Notes: a model not told the origin generated them from the letters alone. 64,000 bases of DNA from Gammaproteobacteria bacterium (GCA_963422205.2 CAXMWX010000007.1:149508-213507), one strand, 5' to 3'. Positions 21,765 through 43,678 are shown, counted from the stretch's first letter. Numbers and translations: made by a program.

Positions 21765-22127
21765 ATGCGCACGATTAGCCCGTCAGCCATGCACAAAGAG
21801 ACCGGTCAAGCAATCGGTGGCCTTGACTTTCTGCGCCAGCGCTTTCTTGACGCGGTCAATACCGAGCGTGGCAGCTTAGTGGGGGCGCGCGACTAAGGCA
21901 TGCGCCTGGATGACTTGATTGACCGCAACATGGATAACGACTTTGCCATGCGGGTCTTTGCTCGTCTGGCGATGGGAATCCTGCACGAGCCCAATGGATT
22001 GTTTGACTTAGAGATCACGCAATTTGCCTTGACGCCGGATAAGAGCCACACCGCGACAGTAACTGTTCATGCCCTCTGGCAAGGGCAGGACATCCGCCTG
22101 CACACACCCGTGAGGACGGCAGCATGA
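21765..22127 (+). pseudogene. Baseplate wedge protein (P2 gpW/gp25-like) with in-frame TAA at 21894-21896
   Basis: T..GS.VGARD*G..L.DLID, where homologues read RDYG; both halves are in the same frame. Confidence 0.8.
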
Positions 22128-22152
22128 GCGCTTTTACCGCCGCCATTGACCT

Positions 22153-22203
22153 TATGTACAGGAAGTACGGTAGGCCGCGGGTGCAGGGACGCACAGGAGC
22201 GGC
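22153..22203 (+). repeat. Double-hairpin CAGG(G)A-loop element interrupting a duplicated gpJ 5' end
   Basis: TATGTACAGGAAGTACGGTAGGCCG..GTGCAGGGACGCAC..GCGGC; first half matches the 23247 element. Confidence 0.75.
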
Positions 22204-22215
22204 AAGGAGTTCAGC

Positions 22216-23079
22216 ATGAACAGTGTGCTGACTACGGCTATTGATTTAGCACAGTTACCAGAAGTTGAATACGTGCCGCAGCTCACTCATGATCAGATCA
22301 CTGTCGAGACCATCCAGTGGTTACGGGATGAGTATGATATGGAACTGGCCGGCCCGGAGGCGCCAGACTACCGCATCATCCGTGCCTGCAACTACCGCGA
22401 GATGCTGCTGCGCCAGCAGTACAACCGTGCCTGTCTGAACCTGACCTTGAAACATGCAACAGGTGAGTATCTCGATCATATCGGTATGACGTACCACCGC
22501 ACTGTCAGATTACCGGATGAGGGCGATGCGGCCTATCGCCAGCGCATTGCCTTAAGCCCGGAAGCGGTCAGTGTGGCCGGCCCCGATGGGGCTTATGTCT
22601 GGCATGTACTCAACGTTGACCCCTCGATACGCGGGGCCAAGGCGCATGAGTTGGCCGAGGGTCAGGTCGGGATTTATGTGCTGACCAACAGCGGTGAGTT
22701 AAGCGATGACTTGCAGGCACGGATTGAATCCGTGTTCAACGATCAATCCATTGGCCAGCCGCAGGCCGTGCGCCCGATTGCCATCCGGGTGTCCGTGCTG
22801 CCCTGCCAGATGCTGGACTATGCGATCAATGCCAGGCTTATCCTTGCGGGTGGGGTGGCCGCAGATGAGGTCAAGGCACACGCCTTGGCCGCCATCCAAG
22901 CCTATACCAATCAGCAGATGCAGATAGGTGGTCGGGTGGTGCGCTCTTTCCTTGACCATCATCTGCATGTTCCCGGTGTCATACAAGTCACCTTGACCGG
23001 CTGGCACAACATTGAAGCCACCTTGACCCAGGCGCCCCGTTGTACCGCCATACATATCACCACCGAGGTGGGTGCATGA
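22216..23079 (+). CDS. Baseplate J-like protein (P2 gpJ)
   Basis: IDLAQLP, YRE.LLRQ..N, A.G..LDHI, SVAGP.GAY and VRP motifs. Confidence 0.92.
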   Translation: MNSVLTTAIDLAQLPEVEYVPQLTHDQITVETIQWLRDEYDMELAGPEAPDYRIIRACNYREMLLRQQYNRACLNLTLKHATGEYLDHIGMTYHRTVRLPDEGDAAYRQRIALSPEAVSVAGPDGAYVWHVLNVDPSIRGAKAHELAEGQVGIYVLTNSGELSDDLQARIESVFNDQSIGQPQAVRPIAIRVSVLPCQMLDYAINARLILAGGVAADEVKAHALAAIQAYTNQQMQIGGRVVRSFLDHHLHVPGVIQVTLTGWHNIEATLTQAPRCTAIHITTEVGA

Positions 23080-23699
23080 GCAGTTTATTGCCCAGTCAGT
23101 ATGCCCTGCGAGAACGCGCCTTGGAAGCGGCCGCTGGTGAGCGGCTGAATGCGCTTGTCTCACCTGCCTTAACCCTGTGGGATGCCGATAACTGCCCGGC
23201 TGACCACCTGCCACAATTAGCCGCCGCCTTAAGTGTGGACTTCTGGTATGTACAGGACGTACGGTATGCCGGTTTTGCAGGAGCAAAAACCGGTGATGAC
23301 TGGCCGGAGGCAGTAAAGCGTCAGATGGTCAAGCAAGCACCGGAGTTGCATCGCTTGAAAGGCACCCCGGCAGGGCTGATCAAAGCACTGGCTATCCTGG
23401 GTTATGGTCACAGTTACTTGCGCGAGTTTGTGGCCTGGAAACACGATGGCACGTTTACCCGCAACGGCGCAATTGCCTACGGCCAGACCCTTACCTGGTA
23501 TCAGTTTGATGTCTATCTGCAAGCCGGTGCTATCCCCGATGCCAATACACTGAACACGCTGCGCCGTTACATTCAGGCATTTAAGCCCACCCATGCGCGC
23601 TTAAGGCGCATCTACTATGCCTCTTGTAAACACAACGGGCAGCACCAGCGCGATGGTCAGATTAACTACGATGGAGGCTTAAGCTATGGCGGACATTAA
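23076..23699 (+). CDS. Phage tail protein I (P2 gpI) carrying a 16-aa in-frame insertion
   Basis: SLLP, LWD...CP...LP.LA.ALSVD.W, WPE..KR and H..KGT motifs. Confidence 0.9.
   Translation: MSSLLPSQYALRERALEAAAGERLNALVSPALTLWDADNCPADHLPQLAAALSVDFWYVQDVRYAGFAGAKTGDDWPEAVKRQMVKQAPELHRLKGTPAGLIKALAILGYGHSYLREFVAWKHDGTFTRNGAIAYGQTLTWYQFDVYLQAGAIPDANTLNTLRRYIQAFKPTHARLRRIYYASCKHNGQHQRDGQINYDGGLSYGGH
23247..23294 (+). repeat. 48-bp double-hairpin element inserted in frame in gpI
   Basis: TATGTACAGGACGTACGGTATGCCGGTTTTGCAGGAGCAAAAACCGGT; removal restores SVDFW-DDWPE. Confidence 0.9.
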
Positions 23700-24756
23700 C
23701 GAGCAATCACAGTGGGAGGATACTGTCTACCAACTGGAGACCACCGACCCGGTCGTCGGCGGCCCGGACGGCATCAGTAACACCCAGGCCAAGCAACTCG
23801 CCAACCGCACGGCCTGGCTGAAATCCCAGGTGGAGCAACTGCTATCTGAACTGAATGCTATCGGTATTGATGATGTTTCTGGTTTGCCAGCGGCCTTGAA
23901 TGGCAAGGCGGCCAGCGCTCATAACCACAATGCCAGTGAGATTACCCGTGGCACCTTGAGTCTGTCCCGGCTCTCTACCGCCAGCCGCTATACCGATGCC
24001 AGCCCCAGTAAGCTGGCCCTGGCCAGCGCTGTGCGCTCGCTCTATGACTGGGTGGTCAGCCAGCTCACCACCAAGGCCGAGGCCGATGCGCTGACCCGGC
24101 ATCTGGGTAATGCCCATGCCCACGGGGAGTATGCGCCGCTTAGCACCTATAACCGCAGCCAGCAGGCGCAGGATGGGCGCCTGACCACCCTGGAGGGTAC
24201 GACCGAGAAACGCCATGTGCAGACCATCACCATCGCCGGCTCGACCAATTACCTGTATCCGGTGTTCTGGCAGTTTCCCGATAATCGCTTCGGCGTAGGC
24301 AAACTGGAGATCAGCCGCCATTACGGCTGGAACCAGGGCGTGCTTCCCAACGACTACGACCAGCCCTATCGGGTGGCGTCCCTGCTTTTGCAACTAGAGG
24401 GCAATGATGCGCCCTGGGGCGGTGATGCTGAGTATATGAAGGTCTTGAAATACTTCCGTCAATACCACAAAACCGCCTCGCACCTGCGCTATATGGGCTA
24501 TGCCAGGCGAGAGAAAATCAATGCCACCGGGGTAGCGCTGTACGGCGCTGCCAATACCAACTACACCCACAGCGGGATTTATCTGCGGGGTGGCGGGCTG
24601 CGCTACCGCTTCTCATCGAACTGGCCGCTGAACCTGATACGCCTGGCCGATGAGAACAGTGCCACCGCCAGAGCGGTACTGACTGAGCAATACAACACCC
24701 GCTGGTATGTGCAGCGCATACCGTTCACCGCCCTGGAAGAGCCGACCGAGGATTAG
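23686..24756 (+). CDS. Tail fibre protein
   Basis: W...VYQLETTDPV.GGPDG.SN.QAKQLANRT.WLK N-terminus; position after gpI. Confidence 0.85.
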   Translation: MADINEQSQWEDTVYQLETTDPVVGGPDGISNTQAKQLANRTAWLKSQVEQLLSELNAIGIDDVSGLPAALNGKAASAHNHNASEITRGTLSLSRLSTASRYTDASPSKLALASAVRSLYDWVVSQLTTKAEADALTRHLGNAHAHGEYAPLSTYNRSQQAQDGRLTTLEGTTEKRHVQTITIAGSTNYLYPVFWQFPDNRFGVGKLEISRHYGWNQGVLPNDYDQPYRVASLLLQLEGNDAPWGGDAEYMKVLKYFRQYHKTASHLRYMGYARREKINATGVALYGAANTNYTHSGIYLRGGGLRYRFSSNWPLNLIRLADENSATARAVLTEQYNTRWYVQRIPFTALEEPTED

Positions 24757-24759
24757 ACC

Positions 24760-25179
24760 ATGACTGAGGAGATCACACTGACCCACGATGAGGCGGTGGC
24801 CCTGGCCGAAGCCGAGGTCGCCCACATCCATAAAAAACGCCTGCGGGCAGACATCAAAGCTGAAGCCGGCGATCCCTTGTCCTTGCTCGGCACCACGGCC
24901 GATGCCACACAGCTACTGCTGTATCACGTTGCGATGTTGGTCAGCCACCTGCACACTGCCACCACGCTGGCCGAAGTCAGGGAGGCCGCCGCCCCCTTTG
25001 CTACCCTCGCCAGTCCCTTTCTCGCCAGGGTTGAATCCGGCGAGGTCAGACTGCCCTATCAGACCAAAGGACTGGAAGTGGTGATGGGCGATATTGAACG
25101 CAGGGCGAGCGCCGTGGCCGAGGCACTCGCCAACCACACACCCACAACCCCATCTGATACCACAGGAGAGTCATTATGA
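24760..25179 (+). CDS. Hypothetical phage protein (tail-fibre associated)
   Basis: ORF with RBS between the fibre and sheath genes. Confidence 0.6.
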   Translation: MTEEITLTHDEAVALAEAEVAHIHKKRLRADIKAEAGDPLSLLGTTADATQLLLYHVAMLVSHLHTATTLAEVREAAAPFATLASPFLARVESGEVRLPYQTKGLEVVMGDIERRASAVAEALANHTPTTPSDTTGESL

Positions 25180-26354
25180 CGATGCGAAACAAACTCCACG
25201 GTGTTGAGCACCGCTACTTACCCCTGGACAAACCCATTGAGGTGGTGGCCGCTTCCACCATTGCCTTGACCGCCACGGCGGACGATGCCGATGCTGACCA
25301 CTTCCCCTTAAACACACCCGTCTTGGTCAGTCAGCCCGATGACATCGCCCAGGCCGGCACCCGTGGCACCTTGGCGAATGCCCTTAACGACATCTATGCC
25401 CAGCAGCCCACCTTAGTCATCGTGGTGCGGGTAGCCGAGGCCGATACCGAGACTGGTACCACCGCCGAGCAGCAGGGCGCACAGGTGGCTCATCTCATCG
25501 GCACGGTGGATAACGAGACCAACACCTTCACCGGCATGCAGGCGATTCTGAACGCTGAGGCTACCCTCGGCATGATTCCTCGGCTGTTTATCTGTCCGGG
25601 CTTCAGTCAGATAGAAGCGGTGGGGACAGCATTGGAAGCCCTTGCCAAAAAGCTCCGGGGGATGGCCATCATTGATGGGCAATCCGATGGCTTATCCGCC
25701 GCTATACAGGATAAGAACCGCTACGATGAGGTGCTGTTTGTCGATAACGGGATTCGGCTGTTTGATACTGATAGCCAGGCTTATATCACCCGTGAGGCCT
25801 CCGCCTCGGTGGCCGGGCATATCGTGCGGATTGATTATGCGCATGGCTACTGGCACAGCCCCTCCAACCATCGGCTCTACGGCATCACCGGGCCGGGTGT
25901 TTCGGTGGACTACACCCGCGGCTCCAAGACCTGTCTGGCCAATGTCTTGTCTGCCAATGACATCGGTACCGTGATAAATAAGGAAGGCGGGCCGGTGTTC
26001 TGGGGCAATCGGCTGGCGAACGGGATGCTCATCCCGCACCAGCGACTGCGCTATCTGGTGGGGGATTCCATCATGGCGGCCCATGAGGAGTACGTGGACA
26101 GAAACTTAACCACCAGCTACTACGAGTTTATGATTGACCGGGTCAACCGCTTTATCCGCCGGCTAACACTCGCTGGCAAGATTGCTGGCGGGGAATGCTG
26201 GCTGAATGCGGAGCTGAACAAAGCCGCCGCTGAGGCCAACACGGCCTACTTTGATTATAAGCTGGGCTTCTTTAATGTCGCTGAGACGCTTGTTTTCAGG
26301 CAGCACGTCACCGCCGAGTACAACAACCAGATTATTGACCGCATTGCAACCTGA
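25176..26354 (+). CDS. Contractile tail sheath protein (P2 FI-like)
   Basis: HGVE, ADDADA..FPLNTPVL, TGMQA, PR....PG, GYWHSPSN and FWGNR motifs. Confidence 0.93.
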   Translation: MTMRNKLHGVEHRYLPLDKPIEVVAASTIALTATADDADADHFPLNTPVLVSQPDDIAQAGTRGTLANALNDIYAQQPTLVIVVRVAEADTETGTTAEQQGAQVAHLIGTVDNETNTFTGMQAILNAEATLGMIPRLFICPGFSQIEAVGTALEALAKKLRGMAIIDGQSDGLSAAIQDKNRYDEVLFVDNGIRLFDTDSQAYITREASASVAGHIVRIDYAHGYWHSPSNHRLYGITGPGVSVDYTRGSKTCLANVLSANDIGTVINKEGGPVFWGNRLANGMLIPHQRLRYLVGDSIMAAHEEYVDRNLTTSYYEFMIDRVNRFIRRLTLAGKIAGGECWLNAELNKAAAEANTAYFDYKLGFFNVAETLVFRQHVTAEYNNQIIDRIAT

Positions 26355-26446
26355 GGACAGATGGCGGGGGACAGAAGACAGATTGTAAGGAGCGGCTTCG
26401 CCGCACTTTATTGTCCGTCCTCCGTCTCCTGTCCTCAGTCCTCCGA
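26351..26446. repeat. Heptamer-repeat palindromic cassette H5 (sheath/tube junction)
   Basis: Four purine 7-mers, central GCGGC-TTC-GCCGC hairpin, four complementary units. Confidence 0.9.
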
Positions 26447-26461
26447 ATCAGGAGCACGACT

Positions 26462-26977
26462 ATGAGTATAAAAATCTTACAAGGCATGAACTGCTTTATT
26501 GACGGGCAGGAGTTTATCGGCGTGGCCACCAAGGCCGCTATCATCTACCCGCAACCGAAGATGAAGGATGTCGCCAGCCCAGGGCTGGCCGGGATGCGCA
26601 AGCTACAGACCGGCAAATGGGAGCTGGAGGACTTGAAAGTGACCTTGCAGGACTACCCGCCCGAGGTGATTGGCCTGGTGGGTCATCCTGAGAGCTCAGA
26701 GAAACCCGTGCAGTTGATTGGTGTGATGGGGCCGGAGGATCCCCGCACCGTGACCGTGACCATCACCGGCCCCTGGAACACCCTGGAAGGCGATGAGTGG
26801 GCGGATGACAGTGACAGTTCTTTAAGTTTCGGCATCTTCCCGGAAGTCTACACGCTGACCATCAATGGCAAAGAGGTCGTGTTCTACGACTGCCAGGCCA
26901 ATGAAGTCAGGCTAAATGGCAAATCCATGACGGCCGATCTCAACAAGCGCCTAAAGCGCACCACCGGATTGGTGTAA
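26462..26977 (+). CDS. Tail tube protein (P2 FII-like)
   Basis: L...N.FIDG..F.G start and Y.L.ING C-terminal pattern; GGAG RBS; follows sheath. Confidence 0.8.
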   Translation: MSIKILQGMNCFIDGQEFIGVATKAAIIYPQPKMKDVASPGLAGMRKLQTGKWELEDLKVTLQDYPPEVIGLVGHPESSEKPVQLIGVMGPEDPRTVTVTITGPWNTLEGDEWADDSDSSLSFGIFPEVYTLTINGKEVVFYDCQANEVRLNGKSMTADLNKRLKRTTGLV

Positions 26978-26995
26978 CCCAGAGGAGAGAACACA

Positions 26996-27232
26996 ATGGA
27001 GAAAATCACACTCGCCTATCCGATTGAGGATGAAGGCAAACAGATAAGCACACTTGAGTTGCGCCGGGCAAGGGTCGCCGATCTGGAAGTCATGGAGCGA
27101 GAGAGCGGTAACATGGCCAAGAGCATTGTCCTGCTCTCGCAACTGAGCGGTCTGTCCACTGATGCCATTCGCCAACTGGATGCGGCCGACTTTGATGCAG
27201 CCAGTGAGCAGGTGGCGGGTTTTTTAGCCTAA
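26996..27232 (+). CDS. Tail assembly chaperone (gpE/gp41-like)
   Basis: ITL.YPI, LRR..V.DL and LDAADF....V.GFL motifs. Confidence 0.88.
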   Translation: MEKITLAYPIEDEGKQISTLELRRARVADLEVMERESGNMAKSIVLLSQLSGLSTDAIRQLDAADFDAASEQVAGFLA

Positions 27233-27375
27233 GGGCGGAGAAGATGCGCCCCATGCTGGCCAATCTGGCGGTGGTGTTTCACTGGTCTCTTGAAGACATG
27301 AAGCAGATGCCACTGGAGGAGTTAATGGCCTACCACACGCTGGCGCTGGAGCGGGCGGTGCTTAGTCGAAAATAG
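27220..27375 (+). other. -1 programmed frameshift site T TTT TTA and gpE'-like extension
   Basis: Slippery heptamer at 27220-27226 in correct phase; -1 frame reads MLANLAVVFHWS......MPLEELM to a stop at 27375. Confidence 0.88.
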
Positions 27376-27619
27376 AACGAACTGTCTCAATCATTTCCAT
27401 CATCATGCCAATGACCCAAACAAAGCACAGCATCGCCAGGCCCGCTACCAGACCGCCCGCTAAGGCTGCACCCAGAAACGTGCCAACACTGGTGCCGTAT
27501 ACCGAGCACATAAACCAGCCACTTAAGATGGCTATGGCTATCACCGGGCTCAAGATGATGCAACAGAAACGCCACACTCCTCTGCGGTATGCTTGGCTAA
27601 GATCAGAGTCATTATCCAT
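27362..27619 (-). CDS. Small two-TM membrane protein (moron-like, antisense to the tail operon)
   Basis: 85-aa ORF with two hydrophobic helices filling the gap between gpE' and tape measure. Confidence 0.6.
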   Translation of the reverse strand: MDNDSDLSQAYRRGVWRFCCIILSPVIAIAILSGWFMCSVYGTSVGTFLGAALAGGLVAGLAMLCFVWVIGMMMEMIETVRSIFD

Positions 27620-27633
27620 AGGCCAAGTATAGC

Positions 27634-30033
27634 ATGACCCAGCTCAATGTCTCAGCCGAAGTCAATCTGGTGGATAAATTCAGTGCCTCGGCTGCGAAGA
27701 TTGCCGGGGTGTCTGAAAAACTGGCTGGACGTCTGCACGAGGGACAGAAAAAGCTGCGCGCCCTGGGGCGTAAAGGCCAAGCGATAGCGCACCTGAAAGC
27801 CCTCTCGGCACGCCTGGGTAAAACGGCTGCTGAGATGGATAGAGCGAAACAGCGCACAGCCCAGCTAGGCCGGGAGTTGGCCGCCACCACCAAGCCGACT
27901 AAACAACTGCAACGGCAGTTTGAGGCGGCCAGGAAACATGCTGACAACCTCAAACGTCAGCACCAGCAGCAACGCGATGAGCTGAAACGCCTGCGCGGTG
28001 AGTTGCGTGGTGCAGGCATAGATACCCGTAACTTAGGTGAGGCCCAGCGTAAGATTGCCAGTAATATGGCCGCCGCTACCCGCAAGATGGAAGGCATGGC
28101 CAAACAAGCCGATAAGGTGGCCGCTGCCCGGGCCAACTACGACCGCACCCTGCAACAAGCCGCCAACATCTCCCTGGTGGCCGGTGGCGTGCATCGCCTC
28201 GGCCAAGGGGCTTTGAGTATGGTAGCAGAGCCCATTGCCCAGATGCGTACCGTTGCGCGTTCCCGCGGCGAGCTGGCCTCGCTGGGCATGGATAAAAGCG
28301 GGGTGGATCAGATCGCCGCCCGTGGTCGGGAGCTGTCCACCCAACTGGCCGGGGTGACCACCGCCGCCTTTGTCTCAGCAGCGTATGACATCAAGAGCGG
28401 CATTGCCAGCTTAGATGATGCCGGGGTCGCCGATATGACGGCGATGGCGGCGCTGACCGCCAAGGCCACCAAGGCCGAGGTGGGGCAGATGACCAGTTTT
28501 TTTGCCACCAGTTATGGGTCGTTCAAGGACAGTCTGTATGAGACCATCAGTAACCGGGACTTCGGCAACATCCTCTCGGCCTCGCTGGCCAAGTCGGTGC
28601 AGCAGTTCAAGACCGATGGGGCGAAGATGCAGCAGGCCATTCAGTCGATGGGCTCAGGATTGGCTGAATCCGGCATCTCACTGGCCGAGCAGTTCACCGC
28701 CCTGGGTATGTTGCAGCAAAAGATGGAAGCCGGTGTGGCTGGCACCACCATGAAGGCGCTGGAGCGCTCGGCTGCCCAGGCACAAGCCCGCTTTGAGAAG
28801 ATGGGCATGTCGATTGAAACCCTGGATGAGAACGGCAACCTGCGCAGCCTGCCGGCGTTGATAGCAGAGATGCAGGCTGCTTTTGGTAAGGACTACACAT
28901 CCGAGACGGGTGCCATCATTCAGGAGGCCTTCGGCACGGCTGAGGCGGTGGAGTTTTTCAAGGCCTTGTGGGGGCAGCAGGATGCCTTCCGGGAGAACAC
29001 CCAGGCACTGGCAGAGGCACAGCAACAGGGCACGGCCTTTACCCAGACGATGGCATCGGCAATGGATGCCAATATGGATGCCCGGTTGCATATCCTTGAG
29101 CAGCGCTTTGCCGTCATCAAAGAACGGCTGGGCAGCGCACTCATCCCCGCCCTGGAGAGACTGATGCCGTGGCTTGAGAAAGCTGCCGGATGGATCAGCC
29201 GCCTGGTCGATAACAACAGCCGCTTGACCAGGTTTTTCATGGCGGCGGTGGCGGGTGTGGGTTTGATTGCCACGGTCATCGCCCCGGTGATTACCGCCGT
29301 TGCCGCCTTGACCACAACGCTGGCTTATCTCGGCTATGCCGCCAGAAAATCCGCTGCCGAGACTGCCCTGGCCTCGGCTGTGATGGGTGGTGGCAAGGGC
29401 AGGGGCTTACGCGGCATGGCGGGCAAGGCTGGCGGGATGCTCAAAGGCAAACTGGGGCTGGTGGGCGCAGGCATCGGTACCCTGGCCATTGGCACGACCT
29501 TGATGGATGATACATTGAGCGGCGGGGAGAAAGCCGCCCAGATCAGCCGCGAGGCGGGCGGCATCGGCGGGGCGCTGGCCGGGGCAGCAGCGGGTGCGGC
29601 CTTAGGCTCCATTGTACCGGTGGTGGGTACTGCTATTGGTGGCATTGCGGGCGGCATCATCGGTGGTATGTCCGGCAACGCGCTGGCCGATGGCCTGGTC
29701 GGGTTATTCTCCTCGGATGATGGGGCAAAACGCACACCGGACACATCTGCTACCACACTCGCCTCTGCTGCCCTGATGGGCACAGCACTGGCTGCGGCCC
29801 CCGTAGCTGCCCAGTCGGACGAGGCAGCACTACCCGCATCCCTGCCTGTTATCACCGCAGCACAAGCACCGCCCAGCACACAACACACCGATAACAGCAC
29901 CCACAGCTACCACATCACCGTCACCCCCAGCCCCGGCATGGATGAGCAGCGTCTGACTGAGCTGGTGGTCGAGAAACTCAAGGCAGCCAACCAGGCCACC
30001 GCCCGCCGTGCCCGTGCCCGCCAGCATGACTGA
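27634..30033 (+). CDS. Tail tape measure protein
   Basis: 799-aa Ala/Gly-rich helical protein after the chaperone; AAYDIKSGI and T.KATK core. Confidence 0.93.
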   Translation: MTQLNVSAEVNLVDKFSASAAKIAGVSEKLAGRLHEGQKKLRALGRKGQAIAHLKALSARLGKTAAEMDRAKQRTAQLGRELAATTKPTKQLQRQFEAARKHADNLKRQHQQQRDELKRLRGELRGAGIDTRNLGEAQRKIASNMAAATRKMEGMAKQADKVAAARANYDRTLQQAANISLVAGGVHRLGQGALSMVAEPIAQMRTVARSRGELASLGMDKSGVDQIAARGRELSTQLAGVTTAAFVSAAYDIKSGIASLDDAGVADMTAMAALTAKATKAEVGQMTSFFATSYGSFKDSLYETISNRDFGNILSASLAKSVQQFKTDGAKMQQAIQSMGSGLAESGISLAEQFTALGMLQQKMEAGVAGTTMKALERSAAQAQARFEKMGMSIETLDENGNLRSLPALIAEMQAAFGKDYTSETGAIIQEAFGTAEAVEFFKALWGQQDAFRENTQALAEAQQQGTAFTQTMASAMDANMDARLHILEQRFAVIKERLGSALIPALERLMPWLEKAAGWISRLVDNNSRLTRFFMAAVAGVGLIATVIAPVITAVAALTTTLAYLGYAARKSAAETALASAVMGGGKGRGLRGMAGKAGGMLKGKLGLVGAGIGTLAIGTTLMDDTLSGGEKAAQISREAGGIGGALAGAAAGAALGSIVPVVGTAIGGIAGGIIGGMSGNALADGLVGLFSSDDGAKRTPDTSATTLASAALMGTALAAAPVAAQSDEAALPASLPVITAAQAPPSTQHTDNSTHSYHITVTPSPGMDEQRLTELVVEKLKAANQATARRARARQHD

Positions 30034-30034
30034 T

Positions 30035-30134
30035 CGGAGGACAGATGACGGAGAATGGAGGACAGAAAATAAAGTATGCCGCAGAGCGGCATCCTCTACA
30101 GTCTGTCCTCGGTCTTCTGTCGTCTGATTTCTGA
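30035..30134. repeat. Heptamer-repeat palindromic cassette H6 (tape measure/gpU junction)
   Basis: Central ATGCCGC-AGA-GCGGCAT hairpin; arms abut the upstream TGA and downstream ATG. Confidence 0.92.
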
Positions 30135-30536
30135 ATGCCGACCCAACTGATGCTCGGCGAGTTCCCCTTCAGCCTCGCTACCACGGAGTATGACCGGCTG
30201 AACCGAACACTTAGCTGGCGCTGGCCATCCCAGACACGCCTGAACCGAAAGCCCGCCCTGCAATACCAGGGGCCTGAGATCATCACCTTGCAGTTAAACG
30301 GCACGATACACGTCAAAGCAGCCAGGGACTTAACGTTACCTGAGGCCATGCAGCGTGAGGCCGACAAGGGTGAACCGCTGGCGCTGCTGGTGGGTAATGG
30401 CGAACTGGCTGCCCGCTACGGCGGGCGCTGGGTGATGACCGAGCTAGCGTTCAATGACAGCGATCTGCTCGGTGATGGCACCCTGCTCACCATTGCCTTC
30501 AGCATGACCTTGAAACAATGGGGCGAAGACAGATGA
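30135..30536 (+). CDS. Phage tail protein (P2 gpU-like)
   Basis: LG.F.FSL.T, WRW....R....PALQY.GP....I.L.G motifs. Confidence 0.9.
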   Translation: MPTQLMLGEFPFSLATTEYDRLNRTLSWRWPSQTRLNRKPALQYQGPEIITLQLNGTIHVKAARDLTLPEAMQREADKGEPLALLVGNGELAARYGGRWVMTELAFNDSDLLGDGTLLTIAFSMTLKQWGEDR

Positions 30537-30660
30537 CAGACGGCAGAATACAGAGGACAGAACATAAAGATGGCGCAAAGCGCCATGCCGCCAGTCTGTC
30601 TTCAGTTCTCCGTCCCCTGCTTGCGCGCTGCGCGCAGGCAAGTCTGTCCTCCGTCATCCG
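30526..30660. repeat. Heptamer-repeat palindromic cassette H7, read in frame as the gpX N-terminus
   Basis: Central ATGGCGC-AAA-GCGCCAT hairpin; nested 27-bp hairpin 30616-30642 is the exact reverse complement of 21025-21051. Confidence 0.9.
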
Positions 30661-30859
30661 TACTCAGAATGGCGATATGCTCGATGCGCTATGTCACCAG
30701 CACTATCCCGACATCAAACCATCAGAGGCCATGCCCGTTGTCCTGGCGGCTAACCCCGGCCTGGAACAGCAACCAGCGGTGTTGCCCGAGGGCATGACGA
30801 TAACCCTGCCCGACATCCCAAGGCCAGCGCCCGAAGCGGCTATTGAGTTGTGGAGTTAG
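30533..30859 (+). CDS. Phage tail protein X (P2 gpX-like) with cassette-derived N-terminal extension
   Basis: RT..GDMLDALC..HY, VLAANPGL, LP.G..I.LPD and LW motifs; ATG overlaps the gpU stop. Confidence 0.85.
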   Translation: MTDGRIQRTEHKDGAKRHAASLSSVLRPLLARCAQASLSSVIRTQNGDMLDALCHQHYPDIKPSEAMPVVLAANPGLEQQPAVLPEGMTITLPDIPRPAPEAAIELWS

Positions 30860-30860
30860 T

Positions 30861-31826
30861 ATGTTGCCAGTGACTTTGCAGATACACATTAACGGGGATG
30901 ATAAAACCGCCCGCATCGCTGACCGATTGGTATCCTTAACTGTCACCGACAATGCCGGTATCGATTCCGACACCTTGGCACTGACCCTGGACGACCGCCA
31001 CCCGCACATCATCCTGCCACCCATCGAGGCCAGCCTGAAACTCTGGCTGAACGGTGTCTATATGGGCTATTACCATGTCAGTGAGCTGGAAACAGACGAT
31101 AAAGCCGGCACCCTGACCATCGCCGCCACCGGCGCCCGCTTCACCGGCCCTATCAAAGCCCCCAGAGATGCCAGCTACGATGACATCACCTTAGGTGCGC
31201 TGGCCGGGATGATCGCCGAGCGCCACGGCCATCGGCTGGCGATACACGCTGAACTCAACGCCACTCCCTTAGGCCATGTGGATCAGCGCGGGGAGTCCGA
31301 TTTGGCCTTACTCACCCGTCTGACCCAACCCCTGGATGCCATCACCAAGCTGGCTGATAACCAACTGATTATCGTACCCAAAGATGCGGCCAGGTCGGTC
31401 AGCGGTCACACCCTGCCTGCCCTTCACGTAAATGCCCAGGCACGAGGCGTCTTTATCCGTGGGACGATCAAGGGACGGGCCAAGGTGAGCCAGGTCAAGG
31501 CCCACTGGCAGAGCGCCGAGATGCCGCAGAAGCAGGCGGTCACGGCTGGTGAGAGCGGGCAGAGCTACACACTCAAGGAAACCTACACCACCCAGGCCGA
31601 GGCCGAAGCTGCCGCCAGGGCGAAACTGGCCGAACTCGGGCGTGCCGAGGTAGACATCGCCATCACCCTGCCCGGTGACCCGAACACCAAGGCCGAGCGC
31701 TTATTGGCCTTAACCAACCACCGCCATGCGGGGCAGTACATCATCCAGACGGCTACCCACAGCATTAGCCCAGGGCAGGTCTATACCACCGCCATGACTG
31801 CCACTACGAAAAGGAGACGACCATGA
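30861..31826 (+). CDS. Phage late control D / baseplate hub protein (P2 gpD-like)
   Basis: RL.SL.VTD..G..SD.L.L.LDDR and HVDQ..ESD...LTRL motifs. Confidence 0.92.
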   Translation: MLPVTLQIHINGDDKTARIADRLVSLTVTDNAGIDSDTLALTLDDRHPHIILPPIEASLKLWLNGVYMGYYHVSELETDDKAGTLTIAATGARFTGPIKAPRDASYDDITLGALAGMIAERHGHRLAIHAELNATPLGHVDQRGESDLALLTRLTQPLDAITKLADNQLIIVPKDAARSVSGHTLPALHVNAQARGVFIRGTIKGRAKVSQVKAHWQSAEMPQKQAVTAGESGQSYTLKETYTTQAEAEAAARAKLAELGRAEVDIAITLPGDPNTKAERLLALTNHRHAGQYIIQTATHSISPGQVYTTAMTATTKRRRP

Positions 31827-32100
31827 ACACATAGCAACATAAGAGACAGATAAAGAGGAGCGACCGGCAAGGTGTTAGCCCACCCCACCGGCCAGCGAAT
31901 CACTGATAAGACCAGTGAGCCACCTAAAGCCCCCCTGCCACGTACGCGGCGAGGGGGAGCGTAACAGAAAGTAGACAAGAGGATAAGCTCACATGAACAC
32001 AACCGCCGAAGCCGTCAAACCCGTTGCCCCCTATGTGGGCGGCAAAATACTACTGGCCAAGACCATCATCAGTCGCATTGAGGCCATCCCCCACACCTGC

Positions 32101-32148
32101 TCGGCTCTGGCTTCCTGCTTCGCTCTACCGATGACATCCCTGTCATCG
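32101..32148 (-). repeat. 48-bp double-hairpin element, in frame in the MTase
   Basis: Reverse complement CGATGACAGGGATGTCATCGGTAGAGCGAAGCAGGAAGCCAGAGCCGA; removal restores PHTC-YAEPF. Confidence 0.85.
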
Positions 32149-32169
32149 TATGCTGAACCCTTTATCGGC

Positions 32170-32218
32170 ACCGGTTTTTGCTGCTGCAAAATCGGCATAC
32201 CGTACATCCCTGTACATA
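32170..32218 (-). repeat. 49-bp double-hairpin element frameshifting the MTase
   Basis: Near-identical reverse complement of 23247-23294; removal restores EPFIG-MGGIF. Confidence 0.9.
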
Positions 32219-33007
32219 ATGGGCGGGATATTCTTAAGACGACCTGAGCGAGCAAAAAGTGAAGTCATCAACGACTACAACCGGGAGGTATCGAACTTCT
32301 TTCGTATCCTGCAACGCCATTATGTCGCCTTTATGGAGATGATGCGCTTCCAGATCACCACAAGAGCCGAGTTCGAACGCTTAACCCGAACAGCCCCTGA
32401 GACCCTGACCGACCTGGAACGTGCTGCTCGCTTCCTGTACTTACAGCGCACCGCCTTCAGTGGTAAACCCTCCGGACAGAATTTTGCTACAGATAAAGTC
32501 CACCCCGCCCGCTTTGACATCACCAAGCTGGCGCCCATGCTCGAAGATCTCCATAGCCGCTTAACCCGTGTCGTGATTGAATGCCTGCCCTACCAGGACT
32601 TCATAAGACGCTATGATGGCGATGAGACCCTGTTCTACCTTGACCCACCGTATTACCGCTGTGAACACTACTATGGCAAAGACCTGTTCCACCGGGACGA
32701 CTTCGTCACCTTGAGTGAACTGCTGGGCGAGATAAAAGGCCGGTTCATCCTCTCACTGAACGATGTGCCGGAGATAAGAGAGCTGTTCAAGAGCTTCCAC
32801 ATCGAGGCCATCAAGACCCACTACTCAGTGAATAAAGGCAAACGGAAAGAAGCAGGCGAAGTGCTGATCAGCAATGCCTAGAGCAATGATCAGGGGTGAG
32901 TGAGCGGACGGGTCAGCAGGCAGGTGGACAGATCGGAAGTGTAAGCCCCTTGCCCTAACAGTCCAGCAGCGAAAATCCAACGAAAGTTGACATAGTCAAC
33001 ACCACTG

Positions 33008-33059
33008 CACAGCCATCTTTCGCATCAATGGCGAATTTTTTTCGCAAGCCTTTAGTCTG
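33008..33059 (-). repeat. Right terminal inverted repeat (CCATCTTTCGCA at 33013-33024)
   Basis: Reverse complement CAGACTAAAGGCTTGCGAAA...ATTGATGCGAAAGATGGCTGTG matches the left end. Confidence 0.88.
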
Positions 33060-33104
33060 TCAGGTTGGAGTATGCCTATTAGGTGGGGTGGGATGACGCA
33101 GGGG

Positions 33105-33345
33105 CGACTGCTCAGGATGGCAGTAACCCGTCATTCTGAGCGTAGCGAAGAATCTATGGTTCTGTGTGATAGATCCTTCGTCACTTTGTTCCTCAGGATG
33201 ACGAGAGGGAGGGCAACTGCTCAGGATGTGACAAGCAGCACGTCATTCTGAGCGAACGACTACAGGGATGTAGGAGGTAGAGAATGTCAGGAACACATTA
33301 TCGAGGTAGAAAACGTCGGGAACAGGTTTTCGAGCGAAGAATCTA
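33105..33345. repeat. Cluster of REP-like palindromes with a nested 77-bp hairpin-element insertion (33257-33333)
   Basis: GTCATTCTGAGCGTAGCGAAGAATCT...CTCAGGATGAC; second copy split as GTCATTCTGAGCGAA[insert]GCGAAGAATCT. Confidence 0.82.
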
Positions 33346-33546
33346 TGTGCTACTGCAATAGAGCCTTACGGTCGCTCGAAAATAGGCCAGGGATGGTTGG
33401 GGATACGTGATGCTTATAGCGGGGGGTGCTGATCAGAGGGTTCTTGTTTGTATGTGCCTTGGCTGCCGGGTCATTGCAGTGACTGCGGCTGCACGCCATG
33501 CGGTATGTATGCTAGTATCAGCGTCCCGACCAGGTGAGGCAGAGCG

Positions 33547-33669
33547 ATGAGCGCCGTGATGTTTGATACGCTGAAATTTACCCGTCGACTGAAAGATGTC
33601 GGTGTGTCGGTGTTGAGTGGGGCGATAGCAGTCCATCGCAAGAGGCAATGGGTGGCGGCAGGCGTGTAG
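33547..33669 (+). pseudogene. Truncated third DUF1640-like paralog
   Basis: [20 protein letters not shown] then diverges and stops. Confidence 0.8.
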
Positions 33670-33691
33670 GCAAAAGATGGCACCTGCCCGG

Positions 33692-33915
33692 TCAGTCGTT
33701 GGCGTAGACAGTCGGGTCGGTGATGCTGGCCGCTGTGAAAGCCCTGACGCCGAAACCGACAGGCATCACAACGGCCACATGCCTGGCCTGCTTCGTCTGC
33801 CTGATAGCAGGAGATAGTGAGATCATAATCCACACCAAGGCGGCTTCCCGTTCGAATGATCTGTGCCTTGTTCATGCCGATCAGGGGCGTATGGATGGCA
33901 AAAGACTGACCGACA
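33692..33915 (-). pseudogene. queC: 3' fragment of 7-cyano-7-deazaguanine synthase
   Basis: IHTPLI.MNKAQII..G..LGVDY..T.SCY......CG.CDAC..R..GF; 5' two-thirds absent; +1 shift before DPT.Y. Confidence 0.85.
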
Positions 33916-34052
33916 AGCGGGTAGAGATGATGGGCGGGGATAGCGGTCAGGGATGGGGGGATGGGATAACCGGGGAGGCGACCTGGTCTGGTGGCGGCTG
34001 AGAGGATGGTGATGACTTTTCTGGCTGATGCGGGCTGTTGTGGGGGTAGTGG

Positions 34053-43430: not shown

Positions 43431-43431
43431 T

Positions 43432-43552
43432 TACGTACAGGATGTACGGTCGTGAATTTGCGCCTGCATTCACGGCATTTATCTTCAGGGATGGAGTGTG
43501 TGCAAAGCCATCGTCAGGAACGATGGCTGCTCCGCCTTCCCTGGCGGTCGTA
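43432..43552. repeat. Intergenic cluster of CAGG(G)A-loop hairpins related to the 48-bp element
   Basis: GTACAGGATGTACGGT, CTTCAGGGATGGAG, GCCATCGTCAGGAACGATGGC, CCGCCTTCCCTGGCGG. Confidence 0.7.
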
Positions 43553-43678
43553 TGCCGCAATGCTAAGGGCAGGGATTGCTCCTGGCAATCCTCCGGGCAA
43601 TCCTGGATATCGACTCAAAACCAAAGACTTTACCGAGCAGGCCGGGCGCCAGCCGAAGATATGCTGACCAGCCGCAGG

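Follow-up and report, generated by a model that had tools for sequence, protein, structure and literature searches.

Hairpin repeats in baseplate and methylase genes

Five copies of a short double-hairpin repeat (c1 to c5) lie in the window, by which we mean the whole 64,000-nt stretch of gammaproteobacterial DNA analysed here, and all five were found where a preliminary description of the sequence had placed them. The copy c1 (22152..22204, plus strand; type I, 51 nt; covariance model 73.5 bits, E 9e-17) lies in sense orientation in a short intergenic spacer: upstream of it a small baseplate-region ORF stops at 22127, and its 3' end directly abuts the AAGGAG ribosome-binding site of a gpJ-like gene (gene names in the window follow PHROGs). 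About 1 kb further on, c2 (23247..23294, plus strand; type II, 48 nt; 37.2 bits, E 1e-7 in a search of the window with filters off) lies sense and in frame in a gpI-like baseplate gene (23076..23699, plus strand; Pfam PF09684 in the homologue table), to which it adds 16 residues. It contains no stop in any of the six reading frames, and a near-twin differing by 1 nt occurs in another genus (G032:C228).

Two copies sit antisense in a gene for a phage-type N6-adenine DNA methylase (31993..32881, plus strand; PHROG 56, E 1.5e-62): c3 (32101..32148, minus strand; C-type, 48 nt), which is in frame, and, 21 bp away, c4 (32170..32218, minus strand; type II, 49 nt; 31.1 bits, E 4e-6, again in the window with filters off), which is 91.8% identical to c2. 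Because c4 shifts the frame, the methylase is broken into ORFs 31993-32247 and 32150-32881, so that the coding effects given in the preliminary description, in-frame insertion for c2 and c3 and a frameshift for c4, are confirmed. An identical duplicate of the methylase gene, with both inserts present, lies on contig C5, and a copy 96% identical to c3, with a compensating stem change and unrelated flanks, lies at C14:175070.

The last of the five, c5 (33257..33333, plus strand), is a C-type unit of 48 nt followed by an extra 29-nt module (GGTAG, a hairpin and CGA), and it splits a REP-like repeat that is present in intact form about 100 bp upstream (33130..33158, plus strand). The 48-bp form lacking the extra module occurs at C5:238492 and C9:68675. 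Since c5 is part of a 350-860 bp repeat that recurs at five loci, its five identical copies represent one insertion event. A nested group of family members, which the preliminary description had not listed, follows at 43431..43600 (plus strand); the model matches 43431-43452 in it with E 0.0013 and, weakly, 43479-43531 with E 0.66.

Architecture and conserved folding

In a unit of 48-51 nt, a GGTA-type linker joins a short hairpin to a second one, which in some cases encloses a third; the two GGA motifs are spaced about 25 nt. Type I is a three-helix form of 51 nt (c1: a first hairpin, the GGTA linker, and an outer stem around a second, GGA-loop hairpin), type II has two hairpins (c2 and c4), and the C-type comprises c3 and c5. 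The double-stem layout previously assigned to all five copies needs correcting for c3, whose first stem (7 bp, GGGA loop) and GGTAG linker are followed by a weak second stem, reduced to 2+2 pairs in the fold. When the window copies were folded, no basal stem common to both hairpins appeared. RNA-fold z-scores against 200 shuffles were -3.77 for c1 and -3.17 for c2 (no shuffle as good in either case), -2.57 for c3 (5 as good), -2.10 for c4 (7) and -1.72 for c5 (13).

In the covariation alignment, paired cells make up 93.7%, both sides have changed in 6 pairs and 29 cells, and the signal was reached by none of 500 shuffles. Stem changes are thus compensating while the loops stay fixed, which bears out the earlier remark that stems vary and loops are kept, although the aligned sequences were picked by patterns in which the first stem is fixed and GGA-type loops are obligatory, making the loop conservation seen there partly circular. 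The suggestion that element length is a multiple of the codon did not hold as a rule: lengths in this genome are 48, 49 and 51 and array periods 48, 50 and 51, and it is the 49-bp c4 that breaks the methylase frame.

Empty sites and insertion without duplication

A sequence lacking the insert was found for four of the five window copies. A methylase paralogue detected by tblastn (C7:1574-2362, 83% amino acid identity) lacks exactly the 48 bp of c3 and the 49 bp of c4, with no duplicated base at either junction, and the REP-like repeat split by c5 also exists in intact copies. The preliminary description had raised the case that gpI and methylase homologues might carry the same peptides; they do not, the 16-residue gpI insert being absent from all 12 of the closest homologues (52-62% identity) and the methylase inserts from the paralogue. 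Its claim that removal of the element restores the expected motif with no target-site duplication holds to the base for c3 and c4; with c2 taken out, gpI falls one residue short of its homologues at the insert point. Outside the window, C11:234300-234760 and C7:637380-637700 are about 97% identical to each other, and one of them has an extra 50-nt unit between a terminator T-run and an older unit. These comparisons support the conclusion that members of the repeat family have moved into genes and into other repeats with no duplication of the target, and the coding-gene insertions with empty sites add to the evidence. The contigs of two public samples showed no empty allele, and no transposition intermediate was seen.

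A MITE derived from a DDE transposon was considered and rejected, because the methylase paralogue reveals no target-site duplication and the ends of the element are separate hairpins that do not pair with each other.

Target sites, arrays and nests

Copies usually abut the 3' end of a terminator T-run: among 159 instances, 65 lie directly after a T-run and 17 are junctions between tandem units, the arrays having a period of 48-51 nt. This preference for the base just after the T-run had gone unnoticed in the preliminary description. TTAT is found ahead of the first stem in 123 of the 159 instances, and the empty site of c4 assigns at least TAT of it to the element; the residual target preference is weak, with T before types I and II and A then G around the C-type, and the ends of the element are uncertain by 1-2 nt. 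Identical tandem units could come from slippage instead of insertion.

Family members also nest within one another's loops. By eye, C-type units stand right after the AGGA of type I or II loops at four loci (L093, L108, L069 and L064), always in one orientation, and in the 43431..43600 group the linker of a type I copy is split by an inverted double hairpin that is in turn split by a double hairpin. A homologous composite lies at C14:168950-169130, and in both groups nested members occur in both orientations.

Distribution across genomes

The covariance model, trained on copies from other genomes and on three from this one, c1 and two that resemble it, has 18 matches at E<=1 in this genome and matches 79 of 126 genomes and 25 of 34 genera of the host's bacterial family. 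Copy numbers range from 0 to at least 46 per genome, and a genome of the same genus has no model copy. The further copies for which the preliminary description had proposed a genome-wide model search are therefore present, and the elements are a real repeat family, widespread in Gammaproteobacteria, which that description had missed. An exact 20-nt pattern has matches in 39 of the 126 family genomes (one match for a reversed-pattern control) and, in the whole collection, in at least 118 stretches, most of those listed being in Gammaproteobacteria. Rfam gave no match for the elements in the window, at 29 loci or in arrays from other genomes, and we found no paper describing them in open-access PubMed Central or bioRxiv.

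Loops resembling CsrA-binding sites

The conserved loops are CAGGA(U/A/C)G and ACAGGGAUGU; first-hairpin loops read CAGGAU or ACAGGGAU, and inner-hairpin loops are often AUGGAU. The consensus selected by CsrA in SELEX experiments is RUACARGGAUGU with GGA in a hairpin loop (quoted in PMC4347634), and c4 agrees with it at 12 of 12 positions, c5 at 11 and c3 at 10, whereas c1 and c2 retain ACA and GGA at a spacing shorter by one base. The element sequences have the ACA...GGA core with GGA in the loop that characterizes CsrA sites. Because the conserved loops match this consensus, CsrA sites can be predicted on sense-strand copies, and sense-transcribed copies (c1, c2 and the arrays) would present them in pairs. 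The resemblance is absent from the preliminary description and new here; binding itself is a prediction from sequence.

This genome has a CsrA gene, as do 107 of the 126 family genomes, including 22 of the 23 genomes of one genus that lacks the element, so the element is not required for the Csr system. Nor can CsrA binding explain the presence of c3 and c4, the antisense copies that make up two of the four in coding regions. A more speculative reading, to which we give limited credence, is that the family is a mobile CsrA-docking cassette that spreads optimal paired CsrA hairpins through gammaproteobacterial genomes and prophages. If so, terminators and the cassette's own loops would be its homing sites, at which sponge-like arrays would build up; genes would come under Csr control, as with the P2-like prophage's baseplate genes here; and the family would be a new kind of minimal mobile DNA, possibly with a new insertion enzyme, as well as a source of Csr/Rsm-type decoy RNAs.

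A proposed model of structure-guided insertion

The explanation that we favour, and consider reasonably probable, is that these are miniature non-autonomous insertion elements of 48-51 nt with structure-guided entry and CsrA-like loops. A unit enters DNA whole, leaving no target duplication, at positions that would be single-stranded beside or within a hairpin: after the T-run of a terminator, 3' of a unit already in place, so that tandem arrays build up, or in the loop of a family member, so that nests form. Orientation relative to the target is fixed for each subtype, and insertion would be structure-guided, strand-specific and carried out by an enzyme supplied in trans, which in this genome is probably not a Pfam-type Y1 transposase. 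Four of the window copies have colonised a P2-like prophage, in the spacer before the gpJ-like gene, in gpI and twice in the methylase gene, with c2 tolerated in frame in gpI and one of the two methylase copies inactivating the methylase.

Mobilization in trans by a Y1 or RAYT transposase had been proposed in the preliminary description; in that model the elements would be minimal units of the IS200/IS605 or REP/RAYT type, their hairpins recognized by a Y1 (HUH) transposase on single-stranded DNA. The lack of target duplication, the hairpin ends, the strand-specific orientation to the target and the occurrence of Y1 genes in 65 of the 126 family genomes are all consistent with such an enzyme, as is the GTAG before the second hairpin of the C-type, GTAG ahead of a hairpin being a feature of REPs. 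However, this 98%-complete genome contains no match to PF01797 (Y1_Tnp); Y1 genes occur in 44 of 79 element-bearing and 21 of 47 element-free genomes, with no clear link to copy number; many copies exist in the absence of a Y1 match in G029 (at least 46, on a single contig), G126 (18) and G024 (17); and a look for Y1/RAYT genes flanked by these hairpins found a family hairpin in a single one of 18 Y1 gene neighbourhoods of relatives. The hairpins also abut the element ends, leaving no spacer for guide sequences of the kind found in IS608. Mobilization by Y1 is thus not supported and seems to us unlikely; an IS110-type gene was likewise absent from this genome, and no gene for a mobilising enzyme came to light. 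Copying of units from RNA or cDNA with no transposase, whether through a reverse transcriptase or by capture as breaks are repaired, would similarly leave no target duplication, this genome has three reverse-transcriptase matches, and adjacency to T-runs could conceivably reflect priming. Yet the reverse transcriptases score 40 bits against a group II intron cut-off of 300 bits, no intron RNA was found beside them, none is near an element, and the UG27 arrays of a 2026 preprint, with units of about 150 nt, are unrelated, which makes this route very improbable.

The units might instead be mainly functional RNA modules, paired CsrA-binding decoys or cis-regulators spread by duplication and selection, the insertions into genes being rare accidents. 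We regard this as a serious if doubtful possibility: the loops match the CsrA consensus, each unit carries the two GGA motifs about 25 nt apart, c1 directly abuts a ribosome-binding site, an array of five units in G113 resembles a small-RNA gene in having a closing stem of 10 bp around it and a T-run after that, and CsrA binding was proposed for the TwoAYGGAY motif on similar grounds (PMC4333381). But most copies follow a terminator and would be transcribed by read-through only, c3 and c4 are antisense and nested members occur in both orientations, no Csr/Rsm family in Rfam matches, copy number varies from none to at least 46 within one family in which the CsrA gene is nearly universal, and exact 48-49 bp insertions in coding DNA call for a process at the DNA level. 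That the extra peptides are ancestral, or ordinary lineage-specific indels that resemble one another by chance, is almost certainly wrong, given their absence from the gpI homologues and the methylase paralogue and the presence of the same units in non-coding DNA of many genera; nothing beyond the one-residue difference beside c2 speaks for it.

As insertion elements, units of 48-51 nt would rank among the smallest DNA units with direct insertion evidence, and their placement after terminator T-runs and in hairpin loops points to a structure-guided mechanism. The coincidence of their loops with the best-known CsrA-binding sequence offers a testable link between the spread of a repeat and post-transcriptional regulation, and hints at one way in which sponge RNAs might originate. 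For genome annotation, the family accounts for unexpected peptides inserted in frame, and for frameshifts, in genes that are otherwise conserved.

Relation to known repeats and RNAs

The closest described motif is TwoAYGGAY (Rfam RF01731; Weinberg 2010, PMC2864571; Gardner and Eldai, PMC4333381; bioRxiv 10.64898/2026.09.22.753630), which also has two hairpins with GGA loops and a proposed role in CsrA binding and which is multi-copy, varies strongly in number between Pseudomonadota strains and is tied to other repeats. The RF01731 model, however, has no match at E<=10 in this genome and is absent among the matches on the 29 loci and the window; it spans 168 positions, in contrast to a 48-51 nt unit in which no common basal stem folds, its loops are AYGGAY where those of the element are mostly CAGGA or ACAGGGA, and the element inserts into coding genes, as shown here.

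REP/REPIN sequences with RAYT, and palindromic mini-elements of IS200/IS605, share with the element short length, hairpin formation, intergenic and clustered occurrence and lack of target duplication, and the C-type further shares a GTAG-like tetranucleotide before the hairpin. The element differs in being two separate tandem hairpins rather than an inverted doublet, in its placement exactly at the end of terminator T-runs, and in having here no cognate Y1 or copy-number link.

Rickettsia palindromic elements are small palindromic repeats of about 100-150 bp that are tolerated in frame in protein genes. Compared by behaviour, they resemble the present element as in-frame inserts, but they are larger, belong to another lineage and are not known to target terminators or to carry GGA loops. 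Elhai and colleagues are said to have described, in 2008, small dispersed repeats of cyanobacteria that are under 30 nt, look mobile and nest in hairpins and in each other; their size, sequence and lineage are different.

Many GGA-loop hairpins are found both in the arrays and in the sponge RNAs CsrB, CsrC and RsmX/Y/Z, but the latter are single-locus genes with their own promoter, whereas the element is dispersed, differs in copy number between genomes, occurs in both orientations and lies inside genes. A Csr/Rsm sponge sRNA gene was rejected as an identity for the window copies, which lie in genes or a spacer, two of them antisense; the arrays start after another gene's terminator, and there is no Rfam match. 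The G113 array does look gene-like.

Structure and position of the copies

The double-hairpin units of this 2.99-Mb, 14-contig genome (contigs carry C-numbers; the window is C9:149508-213507) are genuine members of one family of miniature insertion elements, absent from Rfam and with clean empty-site evidence. Reading the sequence confirmed all five copies reported for the window in the preliminary description: c1 (22152-22204), c2 (23247-23294), c3 (32101-32148), c4 (32170-32218), and c5 (33257-33333). Each consists of two hairpins joined by a GGTA-type linker, the first with AGGA or AGGGA in its loop and the second with a loop of CAGGA type. We call the 51-nt three-helix form (c1) type I, the 48/49-nt two-hairpin form (c2 and c4) type II, and c3 and c5 C-type. 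In RNA folding with 200 shuffles, c1 and c2 had z scores of -3.77 and -3.17, no shuffle doing as well for either, and scores were weaker for c3 (-2.57; its second stem folds poorly), c4 (-2.10), and c5 (-1.72). PHROGs assign c1 to c4 to a P2-like region of baseplate and methylase genes: c1 directly 5' of the ribosome-binding site of a gpJ-like gene, c2 in sense orientation within the gpI-like baseplate gene (23076-23699), and c3 and c4 antisense in a phage DNA methylase gene (31993-32881).

Insertion into genes and repeats

Sequence comparison argues that four of the five copies are insertions. An uninterrupted methylase paralogue at C7:1574-2362 shares 83% protein identity with the window gene, and in the DNA alignment c3 and c4 appear in the window gene as extra segments of precisely 48 and 49 bp. 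The two junctions have zero duplicated bases, with a placement freedom of one base each, which bears out, at c3 and c4, the proposal of insertion without target-site duplication. As had been described, c3 preserves the methylase reading frame and c4 shifts it, so that the gene is split into ORFs 31993-32247 and 32150-32881. An identical methylase with both inserts is present on contig C5, and a third methylase fragment at C5:176084-176302 on the minus strand (79% identity over 73 residues, with an in-frame stop) is probably a remnant. A set of 12 gpI proteins, the closest found, at 52-62% identity, uniformly lacks the 16-residue insert encoded by c2, and removal of c2 leaves the window protein one residue shorter at the insert point than these homologues. 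Since neither these 12 proteins nor the methylase paralogue carries the inserts, the gpI and methylase peptides are very unlikely to be ancestral sequence, in line with the preliminary description. Two gpI homologues from metagenomes (P0013 and P0011) carry internal tandem duplications, one of ~25 residues mid-protein and the other C-terminal, so changes in length at other positions are likewise tolerated by this baseplate protein.

The fifth copy, c5, interrupts a REP-like repeat that also occurs uninterrupted, and 48-nt versions of c5 lacking its extra 29-nt module occur at C5:238492 and C9:68675. Because c5 lies within a ~350-860-bp repeat (33058-33918 in the window) found at five places (C9, C11, C8, C3, and C7) with 99-100% identity, its copies represent one insertion event. 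This larger repeat also contains REP-like repeats, a family that starts with GTCAYYCTGAGCG, ends with GCGAAGRATC, and occurs as single and inverted copies (window 33130-33158 and 33243-33350; C8:16214, C9:68868, C9:159874, and C14:119446), two of which are split by C-type elements. Elsewhere, two loci on C11 and C7 that are ~97% identical differ by one 50-nt unit between a terminator T-run and an older unit.

Viral and metagenome contigs were searched for gpI relatives that could give a DNA-level empty site for c1 and c2, and none was found; for c1, no comparison yielded an empty site. Just two public samples, both of one study, contain the stretch; their contigs, which do not reveal rare variants, carry the elements and show neither an empty allele nor a joint. 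No RNA samples containing the stretch are listed. The copy at C14:175070 seemingly supplies the last ~22 codons of a phage tail ORF (C14:174756-175136) whose PHROG 680 homology stops at residue 104, where the element starts, making it a possible fourth in-gene insertion. An open-frame scan across elements in other genomes returned 18 rows, mostly chance pattern matches or GC-rich open frames, with no clear in-gene case.

A codon-multiple length, proposed earlier, is not a rule, since copies in the genome measure 48, 49, and 51 nt and tandem arrays repeat every 48, 50, or 51 nt. No stop codon occurs in any of the six frames of c2 and c4, the type II copies (matched by 9 and 3 of 2000 shuffles, respectively), which counts as one observation because the two are related; c1, c3, and c5 have 5, 4, and 2 open frames. 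Such all-frame openness may aid the survival of type II units inside genes.

Copies across the genome and target sites

That further copies exist in the genome is borne out by BLAST and pattern searches, which located them in unrelated flanks (including C7:264855, C14:173155, C14:175070, C8:41626, C9:133654, C14:58769, and C14:169072), several with compensating stem changes, and by a covariance model whose 46 seed copies from other genomes were supplemented with c1 and two c1-like local copies. The model gave 18 matches at E<=1, 14 of them below 0.01; in the window it found c1, c2, c4, and 43431-43452, the C-type copies c3 and c5 being outside its coverage. A strict structural scan (13 matches vs 9 in the control) was too crude, a looser one gave 57 vs 30, and a loose regular expression for the C-type produced mostly noise; for loop-motif counts, the reversed genome is an unfair comparison. 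Some units are interrupted by other units, at times inverted, in nests parsed by eye at window 43431-43600, C14:168950-169130, C7:637400-637680, and C11:234250-234700. By our own count, prophage DNA holds ~7 of 17 distinct element loci, and both copies at C14:173-175 kb lie in a phage tail region according to PHROGs. A match to C4 antisense RNA (RF01695, 56.6 bits) at C7:264533-264613 precedes the c1-like copy C7:264855 by ~240 bp and marks another phage-derived region.

Across 159 instances, TTAT precedes 123, 65 stand directly after a T-run, and 17 are tandem junctions; from the c4 empty site, at least the TAT of the preceding TTAT belongs to the element. At four loci, C-type units directly follow AGGA in the loops of type I/II units, always co-oriented.

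Distribution and covariation

A 20-nt pattern covering hairpin 1 and the linker matched 39 of 126 genomes and 13 of 34 genera of the same bacterial family (a reversed-pattern control gave a single match), with tandem arrays of period 48-51 among the matches. The covariance model extended this to 79 genomes and 25 genera. With up to 46 candidates scored in each genome, copy numbers start at 0 and reach 46 or more. It found no copies in the same-genus genome or in a genus of 23 genomes; one copy in another genus is 1 nt from c2, and another copy has compensating changes in stem 2. Scanning a single genome for each species gave at least 118 matching stretches; among the matches listed, most were in Gammaproteobacteria (Marinobacterium, Nitrincola, Sedimenticola, Motiliproteus, Amphritea, Solemya symbionts, Rheinheimera, and others), two were in Bdellovibrio-like genomes, and a few were evident chance ones. 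Searches with c2 had no match in plasmid and phage collections, and IMG/VR yielded 5 loci only, as raw matches. In 49 aligned sequences, whose stem 1 was set by the search pattern, 93.7% of the cells in the three helices are paired and both-side changes occur in six pairs (29 cells), a level reached by 0 of 500 shuffles. The earlier observation that stems differ while loops are kept thus extends to compensating changes in this set, in which the loops were partly required by selection.

One family genome (G113) has, within an intergenic region of 700 nt, five identical 50-nt tandem units (C1:107964-108213) enclosed by a 10-bp closing stem, after which comes a T-run. By its layout this array resembles a small-RNA gene, the most small-RNA-like array seen.

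Known relatives and CsrA-like loops

We found no description of the family in the open-access PubMed Central and bioRxiv literature. The nearest described thing is the TwoAYGGAY motif, proposed as CsrA-binding in PMC4333381 and, in a 2026 preprint (bioRxiv 10.64898/2026.09.22.753630), presented as multi-copy and repeat-associated in Pseudomonas. Like the present units, TwoAYGGAY has two GGA-loop hairpins, but our units fail its Rfam model and are of another size and arrangement. Rfam gave no family at gathering score in the window and no Csr/Rsm or TwoAYGGAY match on 29 loci.

The element loops bear a strong likeness, at the sequence level, to CsrA-binding sites. The CsrA SELEX consensus RUACARGGAUGU, as given in PMC4347634, has invariant ACA and GGA, with GGA in a hairpin loop; hairpin 1 of c4 agrees at 12 of 12 positions, c5 at 11, and c3 at 10, and c1 and c2 retain ACA and GGA with spacing one base shorter than the consensus. 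CAGGA is the sequence of the copies' second loops. This genome encodes CsrA; across the family the gene is found in 107 of 126 genomes, those without the element among them, and its distribution does not discriminate. A scan for GacA/UvrY boxes that allowed up to 2 mismatches to a consensus found none beside the arrays.

Candidate mobilizers

The preliminary description proposed mobilization in trans by a Y1/RAYT (HUH) transposase, possibly itself flanked by these hairpins. Y1 genes occur in 65 of 126 family genomes, 44 of 79 carriers of the element and 21 of 47 non-carriers; Pfam Y1_Tnp matches neither the genome studied nor several genomes whose copy numbers range from 10 to 46 or more (e.g. 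G029, at least 46), and a family-like hairpin lies in only 1 of 18 Y1 gene neighborhoods. The absence of Y1 here, its distribution, and its neighborhoods therefore leave the Y1/RAYT proposal unsupported. The genome has no IS110-type transposase, and its one TnpB remnant is unconnected with the elements. Judged from the anatomy of the elements, a single-strand, hairpin-guided mechanism would fit best. There are three reverse-transcriptase matches (C7:824763-827751 and C7:767605-767871), two of them close together, one of this pair with an internal TGA; a group II intron type was rejected, with scores far below the cut-off and no intron RNA beside them, and unit size rules out UG27 hairpin arrays as the identity of the elements.

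Other repeats were noted in the genome. A ~36-nt repeat on C3 (~552-557 kb; roughly 165 copies by 11-mer counts) has a neighbor spacing that resembles a large CRISPR array, and in the k-mer table poly-C 11-mers are numerous (143) and a tandem repeat with a 7-nt unit (CTGCGGT type) is conspicuous, with ~76 counts for its 11-mers.
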